NCBI GenBank assembly: GCA_016213085.1
Contig: JACRBU010000171.1
Location: 1-41,208 of the forward strand
DNA: 41,208 nt
Direction of reading: 5' to 3'
DNA from: Coriobacteriales bacterium
GTDB lineage: Bacteria; Actinomycetota; Coriobacteriia; Anaerosomatales; JACRBU01
Shown: in pieces, positions 5,268-6,688 of the stretch
Numbering within the stretch: the stretch's first letter is position 1
How the letters are laid out: every line of letters begins with the position of its first letter
Translations under genes and position numbers: made by a program
The notes under the pieces: generated by a model
Database searches by the model: none
What the model saw: only the letters and a program-made list of their open reading frames with translations
Told to the model about the DNA's origin: nothing

Positions 5268-5609
5268 CTAGCAGCAGGAGCCGCTGCTCGCGTCGGTCGA
5301 GCAGCACGAATCGCCTTCGGAATCCCCGCCGCAACCGGGTCCACAGGTGGGCGGGCCGCCGGTGATCCAGCTTCGGATGATCGCCTCGGCACACCCGACG
5401 CCCGGGTCCACGCTGATCGCCCCCGACGCGCAGTTCAGCGCACACGCGCCGCACTCCATGCACGCGCCGCGGTCGACGATCGTCGCGCGCGAGTCCCGCA
5501 TCTCGAAGACGGCGTGCGGGCAGACGACGGTGCACATTCGGCAGCCGGTGCACTTCTCGACGTCGAGAGCGAGCGTCGGCGCGTCTTCGATGTAACGCAG
5601 GGACTTCAT
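5268..5609 (-). CDS. hgcB: HgcB, 2x[4Fe-4S] ferredoxin of the mercury methylation pair
   Basis: The product is 113 aa. It has 'CTGCRMCTVVCP' and 'CMECGACALNC' (the HgcB C(M/I)ECGA signature), an internal Cys in 'GVGCAEA', and a C-terminal '...SCC'. Its ATG overlaps the hgcA stop (ATGA, 5606-5609). Confidence 0.85.
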   Translation of the reverse strand: MKSLRYIEDAPTLALDVEKCTGCRMCTVVCPHAVFEMRDSRATIVDRGACMECGACALNCASGAISVDPGVGCAEAIIRSWITGGPPTCGPGCGGDSEGDSCCSTDASSGSCC

Positions 5610-6688
5610 CGCACAACTCCCCATAAAATCCCCGCAGCCCACAGGGCTACTGAGGTACCAGCCATCACGATCTGGACGGGAATCCAACGCCGCAATTCCT
5701 GTTCCACCCCGCTCGGAGAGGTGTAGGGCGTGGACCCGGTGAAGTTCATCGCGACGTAGGAGGAGACCGCCGCCGCGCCGACGATGCCTGCAAGCGCGGG
5801 AAGTGCGTAGAGGCTGGCGGCCGGCTCCGAGCCTCCGCGGAGCATGCCGTACGTCAGCAGGACGTAGGCGCCGAGCGGCGCGGCGAACACGGCCCCTGCC
5901 AGCGCGCCCTTGAGGGCGAACCGGCGCCCGGGAACCCATGGGAGCAGGAGGGGGACCGCGAAACCGCCGGCGAGCACGCCGACGACGTAGAAGACCGCCG
6001 CGAGCAAACCCCAGGCGGCAGCATTGCCCGCGGAGGCAGGAACGTCCCAGATCGCAGCTCGGACGACATAGAGGATCGACGCCGCGGCGAACAGCCCGAT
6101 CGGGACGAGCGCACGCCATCCCCGAATCGACCCCAGCACCTCGACCGGCGTCAGCTCGAGTCGCTCACGCATCGTGAACGTGACGGCACGCATCTCGTCG
6201 GTCGCCTTCATGCCGGCGTCGAGGAACGCGCCGATGTCCGCAGCGCGGATCGGCCCGTAGACGACCCGGTATCCGGTGGCCCTTCGCACCTCGTGGGAGG
6301 CGATACCGGGCGCGCCCAGCTGCGGGACGATGACGGTCTGGGTCTCGGCGACGAGCGGCAGCGGGCTCTGCATGATTCGCCGGATCAGCTCTCCCGTGCC
6401 GAACGTCCGCTTGCCGGCAGCGCACCACACGTTGATGCCTTTCGTGTCGAGCACCAGCAGCCAGGCGTCGACACCGACGGTGTCGCGTCGCACGACATCC
6501 ACGGTGAACTTGTAGTTGGCCGTCACGAGAACCGGCGACCCAGAGTCAGGCTCGCCGAGTCGGTACAGGCCCGGATCTACCCGATAGTCATCCCGGCCGA
6601 AGCCCCATCGCATGCGCCACATGCCGCGGCGGTCGCTCGTCGACAGAGCGTGATCGAGCTGAGGTATCTGCTGGTCCAAGCTGCGCAC
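5606..6688 (-). CDS. hgcA: HgcA, corrinoid-binding membrane protein of the mercury methylation pair
   Basis: 'AWLLVLDTKGINVWCAAGKRTFGTGEL' contains the diagnostic N(V/I)WCA(A/G)GK cap-helix motif. The C-terminal half has several TM helices. The start is either GTG 6688 or ATG 6622 ('MWRMRWGFGRDDYRVDPGLY'). Confidence 0.9.
   Translation of the reverse strand: MRSLDQQIPQLDHALSTSDRRGMWRMRWGFGRDDYRVDPGLYRLGEPDSGSPVLVTANYKFTVDVVRRDTVGVDAWLLVLDTKGINVWCAAGKRTFGTGELIRRIMQSPLPLVAETQTVIVPQLGAPGIASHEVRRATGYRVVYGPIRAADIGAFLDAGMKATDEMRAVTFTMRERLELTPVEVLGSIRGWRALVPIGLFAAASILYVVRAAIWDVPASAGNAAAWGLLAAVFYVVGVLAGGFAVPLLLPWVPGRRFALKGALAGAVFAAPLGAYVLLTYGMLRGGSEPAASLYALPALAGIVGAAAVSSYVAMNFTGSTPYTSPSGVEQELRRWIPVQIVMAGTSVALWAAGILWGVVR

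Follow-up and report, generated by a model that had tools for sequence, protein, structure and literature searches.

A divergent hgcA-hgcB gene pair, predicted to encode a mercury methylase, in the genome of an uncultured Coriobacteriia-type actinobacterium

The 41,208 bp stretch of DNA examined here (contig JACRBU010000171.1, referred to below as the window) carries on its reverse strand two adjacent genes that are, from sequence comparisons, almost certainly true orthologues of hgcA (5606..6688) and hgcB (5268..5609), the genes for the corrinoid protein of the mercury methylase and its ferredoxin partner. That the two genes are hgcAB orthologues and in addition probably specify a working methylase is a joint claim that we make with good, though lesser, confidence, and production of methylmercury by the pair in the living cell, argued by analogy with the characterised system, is probable rather than assured. 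Sequence motifs and family membership, the fold and topology, the arrangement of the genes, the affiliation of the host and synteny make up the case.

The product of hgcA scored 386.9 bits against the curated hidden Markov model (HMM) HgcA_corrinoid (NF040863, cutoff 275; model positions 1-321 of 325; E = 7e-116), and the product of hgcB scored 115.8 bits against HgcB_ferredoxin (NF040864, cutoff 99; model positions 1-93 of 93; E = 6e-34). These E values rule out a chance match for the pair. Six other HgcA from the clade of the window protein, of which three are labelled Coriobacteriia, scored 392-417 bits on the HgcA model, and the score of the window copy is within the normal range for the clade. 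Models of related families gave scores below their cutoffs. With the model for fused HgcAB-like proteins (NF043039, cutoff 285) HgcA reached 184.6 bits and HgcB 52.8, while the gamma-subunit model for corrinoid iron-sulfur protein (CFeSP; NF003195, cutoff 306) gave 60 bits for HgcA, through its last ~120 positions only. The consensus protocol for hgcAB detection asks, at high stringency, for a listed cap-helix motif together with, on the same contig, a C(M/I)ECGA ferredoxin (PMC10087281), and the window has NVWCAAGK and CMECGA on one contig. A sequence-only reading of this DNA had named the genes as an hgcA-hgcB pair and had pointed to a CdhD/AcsC-type CFeSP subunit or a fused paralogue as the identities to be checked; the name stands, with both curated models passed and both of the others below cutoff.

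The hgcA gene encodes a protein of 360 amino acids, starting with GTG and ending with a TGA stop at 5606-5608, and the open reading frame (ORF) includes LLVLDTKGINVWCAAGKRTFGTGEL. The cap-helix motif NVWCAAGK (6410..6433, reverse strand; residues 86-93), which fits the pattern N(V/I)WC(A/S)(A/G/S)GK, contains the sole cysteine of the protein, Cys89 (codon TGC at 6422-6424, reverse strand), which is the predicted lower axial ligand of the cobalt. Residues N86, V87, W88, C89, A90, A91 and G92 are invariant in an alignment of 82 homologues, and the motif is in register across a cross-phylum set of 126 HgcA made up of the window protein and 125 others. The motif is part of a Rossmann-like, CFeSP-type corrinoid-binding domain (6209..6586, reverse strand; residues ~35-160). 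This is followed by a transmembrane (TM) domain of five helices (5612..6121, reverse strand; residues ~190-359), seen in the hydropathy profile as hydrophobic segments at residues ~195-213, 225-249, 259-283, 290-316 and 336-358. A conserved NFTGSTPYTSPSGVE loop joins TM4 to TM5, and in it T317, G318, T323, S324, G327, V328 and E331 are invariant in the 82-sequence alignment. In the public gene call (P0001) HgcA is only 338 amino acids long and starts at the ATG at 6622. However, among homologues D19 is invariant and P9 nearly so, and the match to the HgcA HMM starts at residue 8, all upstream of that ATG, so the GTG at 6688 is the likelier start and the public call is probably 22 residues too short.

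An AlphaFold2 model of HgcA, built from the 82-sequence alignment, had a mean predicted local distance difference test score (pLDDT) of 90.9 and a predicted template modelling score (pTM) of 0.85. It contains a beta/alpha domain with strands at residues 53-57, 75-80, 118-121 and 141-144, a short helix (87-92) that bears Cys89, and five long helices (190-213, 220-251, 257-283, 291-316 and 327-359) that agree with the five hydropathy peaks. When the model was compared with the Protein Data Bank (PDB) using Foldseek, the top match was the HgcAB integrative model 9a0b_A (E = 8.7e-18, 43% identity), followed by CFeSP large subunits (4c1n, 2h9a) that matched in the corrinoid domain only (root mean square deviation ~1.4 A over 124 columns). 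Neither by sequence nor by fold did the PDB yield an experimentally solved HgcA.

The hgcB gene encodes a ferredoxin of 113 amino acids with two [4Fe-4S] motifs (5430..5552, reverse strand), to which Pfam assigned Fer4 families. The first motif is C20-x2-C23-x2-C26-x3-C30-P and the second is C50-MEC53-GAC56-ALN-C60, the signature CMECGAC thus occupying residues 50-56. A strictly conserved extra cysteine, expected in HgcB ~12 residues beyond the second motif, is Cys73 (5391..5393, reverse strand) in the sequence GVGCAEAII, and a flexible, Cys-rich C-terminal tail (5271..5345, reverse strand) contains C89, C93 and two CC pairs (102-103 and 112-113). The number of CC pairs in the HgcB tails of relatives ranges from one to five: there are two in the window, three in the HgcB at 11042-11446 of locus L085 (GCA_031292615.1) and five in that of OW818687.1 (locus L084, 11040-11495), while most HgcB from other phyla in the same set have one. 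Tails of the Coriobacteriia type are long and of low complexity, with repeated (S/G)SCC modules. Variation in HgcB tails is already known (PMC7305189).

The TGA stop of hgcA and the ATG start of hgcB overlap as ATGA (5606..5609, reverse strand), read from the sequence as ...gtgcgATGAagtcc..., and a Shine-Dalgarno-like GGGGAG lies ~7 nt 5' of the hgcB start. This overlap, the cap-helix motif with its cysteine, the multi-helix membrane domain and the di-cluster ferredoxin with its internal cysteine and C-terminal CC had all been read from the letters alone, and each was found again by alignment, hydropathy, modelling or direct inspection. A terminator-like hairpin followed by ATTTTATGGG (5630-5646, reverse strand) was also seen within the final 40 nt of hgcA, ~20 nt ahead of the hgcB start. 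A scan of positions 5000-7100 found two such sites in 2.1 kb against 0.5 expected, and for that reason both hairpins around hgcAB are probably due to chance.

A mechanism for the pair can be proposed by homology with the HgcAB system of Pseudodesulfovibrio mercurii (Desulfovibrio desulfuricans) ND132, from which cofactor binding, methyl donor, electron flow and methylmercury production are all inferred. HgcA would be anchored in the membrane by its five helices, with the cytoplasmic Rossmann-like domain holding a base-off cobamide and the cap-helix residue Cys89 serving, through its thiolate, as the lower axial ligand ('Cys-on'). Co(I) would be methylated to CH3-Co(III) with S-adenosylmethionine (SAM) as the donor, and the methyl group would then move to Hg(II), giving CH3Hg+. 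HgcB, its translation presumably coupled to that of hgcA by the ATGA overlap, would return the cobalt to Co(I) using its two [4Fe-4S] clusters, and its Cys73 and flexible Cys-rich tail probably bind and shuttle Hg(II) or CH3Hg+. Methyl-tetrahydrofolate was the methyl donor proposed earlier. Work from 2024 identified SAM as the methyl donor of purified HgcAB (PMC11588087), so the lack of Wood-Ljungdahl genes near the pair is not notable. Roles for Cys73 and the tail cysteines of HgcB in mercury handling have also been described (PMC7305189).

The host of the window is best assigned, from its conserved proteins and gene order, to the uncultured Coriobacteriia-type actinobacteria, in keeping with the actinobacterium-like, GC-rich genome first noted. 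The best homologues of PurC are 75-80% identical, and every named one comes from Coriobacteriia or from an 'Actinobacteria bacterium' metagenome-assembled genome (MAG); synteny with Coriobacteriia MAGs held by NCBI, described below, agrees. The presence of purine-biosynthesis operon genes (purC, purS, purQ, purL, purF, purM and purN, with purM intact at 37484-38536) and of a kdp operon (kdpABC with kdpD/E) means that the window is chromosomal and not part of a plasmid or phage; it further holds four TrkA-type genes, a P-type ATPase and two-component systems. A scan of one genome per species turned up no close relative of the source genome, its best HgcA match being 51% identical and from a Coriobacteriia MAG. 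Named HgcA homologues at ~50% identity include those of Coriobacteriia and Deferrimicrobium MAGs.

A neighbour-joining tree of the 126 HgcA (317 columns) placed the window protein as the basal branch of a clade of 26 members, four of the five HgcA from Coriobacteriia genomes among them. This clade was recovered in 45 of 60 bootstraps. In 59 of the 60, the window HgcA fell in a clade with at least four of the five Coriobacteriia sequences and with no labelled genome from another phylum.

The position of the pair is shared with two related MAGs. In the window, hgcB-hgcA lies between a predicted membrane protein without a Pfam match (3936..4442, forward strand) and a block identified with Pfam (8873..15365, forward strand) that consists of a response regulator, a histidine kinase, a DUF3221 gene in the opposite orientation, a Na/Ca exchanger, purC, purS and purQ. 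The N-terminal cysteine pairs of the membrane protein look like a zinc ribbon. In GCA_036508155.1 (locus L082) and GCA_031292615.1 (locus L085), which are ~82% identical to one another at the DNA level, hgcB-hgcA is likewise bounded by a membrane-protein homologue on one side and this response regulator-histidine kinase-purCSQ block on the other, with hgcA divergent from the block regulator as in the window. The homologues of the membrane protein are 49-53% identical to that of the window; they flank hgcB in these two MAGs (49%), and one is found at the equivalent place in OW818687.1. Identities of the block proteins in these two MAGs to those of the window are 72-78% for the response regulator, 55% for the kinase, 74% for PurC, 84% for PurS and 74-75% for PurQ; DUF3221 again lies between the kinase and purC, and a P-type ATPase (53-54%) follows purQ, and then a TrkA gene (56% in GCA_036508155.1). 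The differences are that both have MscL where the window has a papain-like and a 416-aa protein, and that the window adds an atypical response regulator and the Na/Ca exchanger. The block is syntenic, at 55-84% identity, in five loci (these two and L087, L088 and L089), and in two to three of the related lineages hgcAB lies in or near it.

For housekeeping proteins the genome of the window is the outlier of the group, its PurC being 75-79% identical to the others compared with 76-84% among those. HgcA is 51-57% identical in all inter-lineage pairs, a range like that of the co-resident sensor kinase (55-61%). The GC content is uniform across the window (62-70%), at 0.68 in the 1-kb bins on either side of hgcAB with no break at the pair, and no mobile-element genes flank it. 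Because the slot is shared, HgcA and the kinase have diverged alike, the GC content is even and mobile-element genes are lacking, long residence is favoured: these data suggest that hgcAB is a long-term chromosomal resident near the block, later rearranged and lost in some lineages, and not a recent transfer. Lin et al. (2023) argued that inheritance of hgcA has been mainly vertical with extensive loss (PMC10083202), and the slot data are compatible with this.

Several points count against the reading of the pair as a working methylase that has long been resident in this lineage, and they are gathered in this paragraph and the two that follow. Those of a general kind concern context. In the literature found, HgcAB from actinobacteria are metagenome-based predictions only (PMC7438021). 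A scan of positions 5000-7100 found no sigma-70-like promoter that would speak for expression, and no RNA family, cobalamin riboswitches included, was detected with Rfam anywhere in the window. ArsR-type regulators are the type linked to hgcAB elsewhere, and the ORFs scanned over the 41 kb of the window showed no ArsR domain; mer and Wood-Ljungdahl domains were likewise not found there, as the sequence-only reading had said of the surroundings of the pair. Cobamide supply and an anaerobic lifestyle are properties that cannot be judged from 41 kb.

The most specific of these points is residue 116 of HgcA (codon ACC, 6341..6343, reverse strand), which is Thr in the window protein at a position where almost all HgcA have His. 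It is His in each of the other 81 rows of the 82-sequence alignment and in 124 of the 126 cross-phylum sequences, the sole other non-His being Gln in the HgcA of a 'Xenobia' MAG, and in CFeSP large subunits a His occupies the matching position in 2h9a and the neighbouring one in 4djd. Two base changes are needed to go from a His codon (CAC or CAT) to ACC, so Thr116 does not reflect an error in one base. Insertions specific to the window protein are seen in TM1 (four residues, 205-208) and in the TM3-TM4 loop (ten residues, 282-291), and the protein is the most divergent member of its clade, on a long branch, with the closest protein among 5.8 billion at most 56% identical. Taken together these features could mean that the genes are hgcAB orthologues that have been functionally altered or weakened, the loss of His116 and the membrane insertions changing cobamide binding, for example through a different lower-base or tail pocket, or lowering methylation, so that the gene may serve some other corrinoid methyl-transfer role or be drifting. 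We consider this unlikely. The window protein conforms to all 48 other invariant columns of the 82-sequence alignment, among them those of the entire cap helix and of the TM4-TM5 loop motif, the hgcA ORF is intact with a third-position GC content (GC3) of 0.81 like that of neighbouring genes, hgcB is intact and coupled to hgcA, and the HMM score lies in the Coriobacteriia range. In the AlphaFold2 model, which is confident around residue 116, this position is two residues ahead of strand beta-3, at that end of the sheet which lies opposite the cap helix, and would not be an obvious catalytic residue. No role for His116 was found in the HgcAB structure-model paper (PMC7305189), its interface section included, or in a B12 review on CFeSP. 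Since the corrinoid domain of CFeSP has been described as enclosing the displaced dimethylbenzimidazole nucleotide (PMC6257451), a role for this residue in the nucleotide-tail pocket is conceivable. Thr116 may reduce or alter cofactor binding.

As regards residence, the slot is not universal. In OW818687.1, a complete 2.5-Mb genome, the membrane, papain-like and 416-aa proteins, response regulator, histidine kinase, DUF3221 and purC follow in window order (locus L087, 3558-10942), but a PIG-L gene occupies the place of hgcAB, which lies ~570 kb away beside a carbonic anhydrase gene (locus L084, 10001-11495). In ERZ27315059 (locus L089), hgcA-hgcB-thioredoxin is found 5' of an extra kinase and the response regulator-kinase-purC block, co-directional with the block, and the arrangement Metallophos-hgcA-hgcB-thioredoxin (3776-5392) is inverted relative to the window. 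GCA_030603745.1 has an ArsR-type helix-turn-helix gene at the equivalent place (locus L088, 5272-5628), and no hgcAB was found in the 21 kb of this genome seen around the block. Given this, vertical residence of hgcAB is plausible, not proven. Recent acquisition from another phylum (e.g. Desulfobacterota or Bacillota), in place of a trait of the Coriobacteriia lineage, would account for the differing positions of hgcAB in OW818687.1 and in loci L081, L086 and L001, and for the nesting of the Coriobacteriia HgcA clade beside Desulfuromonadales-type and Deferrimicrobium-type sequences in the neighbour-joining tree; HgcAB trees are, moreover, incongruent with species trees, and a transfer between phyla in which an actinobacterium took part has been put forward (PMC7438021). 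It is nevertheless very unlikely, as the nearest labelled HgcA are all from Coriobacteriia, the slot is common to two lineages with just 74-78% identity between their housekeeping proteins, and the divergence of HgcA tracks that of neighbouring non-housekeeping genes, besides the even GC content and GC3 and the lack of flanking mobile-element genes. An identity as a CFeSP (CdhD/AcsC-type) subunit or as a non-methylating fused HgcAB-like paralogue has next to no chance of being right and was rejected. What could suggest it is that Pfam finds in HgcA only PF03599 (CdhD) and that its sequence matches among solved structures are all CFeSP large subunits (4djd, 2h9a). However, the CdhD match is to the C-terminal part of the profile (266-386 of 387), the last ~120 positions as with the CFeSP model, and the HMM cutoffs separate the families. 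Cys89 aligns to the cap-helix Thr of 4djd, a known difference between HgcA and CFeSP (PMC7305189), and the architecture differs, with five TM helices in place of the [4Fe-4S] and TIM-barrel domains of CFeSP, a separate hgcB gene, and no carbon monoxide dehydrogenase/acetyl-CoA synthase genes found in the window. The neighbour-joining tree contained HgcA only, with no CFeSP or fused-HgcAB outgroup, and the separation from CdhD/E and fused HgcAB comes from the HMM scores.

A more specific proposal, that the window HgcA is a deep-branching form with a naturally re-tuned corrinoid pocket and that the pair is an old, vertically inherited Coriobacteriia trait in a fixed purCSQ slot, is tentative and, taken whole, unlikely. 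If it is true, Thr116 could mean a preference for another cobamide or an altered activity, and the pair would be a natural mutant from which the function of a universally conserved histidine could be learned.

The genes next to the pair correspond to those first noted, an atypical OmpR regulator convergent with hgcB and a secreted protein divergent from hgcA, although the papain-like character of the latter is sub-threshold. The OmpR-family response regulator (4511-5236, forward strand) has Ser in place of the phospho-acceptor Asp (..AVIVVSRELA..) and Gly in place of the conserved Lys, and its receiver domain covers only Pfam positions 1-76 of 111, which suggests that it is probably phosphorylation-independent. 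It is missing from the equivalent slot of the related MAGs and is therefore probably not tied to hgcAB. On the other side, a signal-peptide protein (6939-7658, forward strand) gave a match to the C92 permuted papain-like family of 22 bits, compared with a cutoff of 27, and is followed by a 416-aa protein without a Pfam match, the two genes spanning 6939-8790 on the forward strand. Homologues 45% and 28% identical, respectively, occur at the same place in OW818687.1, so the two form a conserved pair.

Beyond the purCSQ block, a dense region for potassium and cation homeostasis (15885-30096, forward strand) contains four TrkA-N/TrkA-C paralogues, a 976-aa P-type cation ATPase and kdpABC. KdpD is seemingly split, with a DUF4118-HisKA-HATPase part (21662-23269) and KdpE located 5' of kdpA and a KdpD sensor plus Usp part (28891-30096) located 3' of kdpC. 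At the other end of the window, a radical SAM enzyme with a SPASM domain (408-1778, reverse strand) could be of the peptide-maturase type.

The pair adds to a group of carriers that has already been predicted. McDaniel et al. (2020) found hgcA in 17 MAGs of Actinobacteria, hgcB being present as well in 16, and assigned nine of the 17 to Coriobacteriia, all in the order OPB41 (PMC7438021). The authors noted that none of the actinobacterial carriers had been characterised (PMC7438021). OPB41 now has cultured members (Anaerosomatales), and the term hgcA is absent from the paper in which they are described. The view that actinobacterial carriers are essentially only metagenomic predictions holds up, but the novelty attached to it is tempered by the 17 MAGs published in 2020 and by the naming of Coriobacteriia proteins as HgcA at NCBI. 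The window pair is thus a divergent further case of the already predicted Coriobacteriia hgcAB, one that annotation pipelines would already call. Its interest lies elsewhere. The presence of hgcAB serves as the predictor of methylmercury production, whereas confirmed methylators belong to a few cultured guilds and the actinobacterial carriers are predictions only, and it would be reasonable to choose the complete Coriobacteriia pair of this 41-kb chromosomal contig for heterologous testing. The conserved slot provides one data point for the debate on vertical versus horizontal inheritance of hgcAB, and the change of His116 to Thr draws attention to a conserved residue to which neither the HgcAB structure-model paper (PMC7305189) nor the consulted passages of other papers give a role. 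The general picture of mercury methylation is unaltered by the window pair.

Of the known systems compared, CFeSP supplied the solved structures that HgcA matches. It pairs with a small TIM-barrel subunit and functions in acetyl-CoA synthesis. The window HgcA shares with the CFeSP large subunit (AcsC/CdhE-type; 4djd, 2h9a) a homologous Rossmann-like corrinoid domain whose cap helix lies under the corrin ring (~1.4 A, 24-27% identity). It differs from CFeSP, where the cap-helix residue is Thr, a [4Fe-4S] domain at the N-terminus and a TIM barrel are present, and a membrane domain is lacking. Fused HgcAB-like proteins (e.g. that of Pyrococcus furiosus; NF043039) have been reported not to methylate mercury. 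They have a corrinoid domain, a membrane domain and ferredoxin motifs in common with the window pair, in which, unlike them, the two genes are separate and score below the NF043039 cutoff.

The genetically and biochemically characterised methylase HgcAB of P. mercurii ND132 has in common with the window pair two adjacent genes, NVWCAAGK, a five-helix membrane domain and a corrinoid domain with a single essential cysteine (C93 in ND132, C89 in the window). The HgcB cysteines at 20, 23, 26, 30, 50, 53, 56, 60 and 73 have the same numbers in both proteins and both tails have a C-terminal CC pair (PMC7305189), and the HgcA fold matches the ND132-based model 9a0b (E = 8.7e-18). The differences are that the window protein is 43% identical in the structural alignment, that its host is an actinobacterium and not a sulfate reducer, that the tail of its HgcB is longer with two CC pairs and two further cysteines, that there is no ArsR-type regulator upstream, and that Thr replaces His116; its activity is predicted. 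A further comparison is with the predicted HgcAB of Coriobacteriia MAGs (OPB41; GCA_036508155.1, GCA_031292615.1 and OW818687.1). The window HgcA is just 47-56% identical to these in BLAST-type comparison and His116 is kept in all of them, but it belongs to the same HgcA clade with similar HMM scores, the genomes are similarly GC-rich (65-68%), the HgcB tails are Cys-rich and extended, and in two of the MAGs the neighbourhood is the same.

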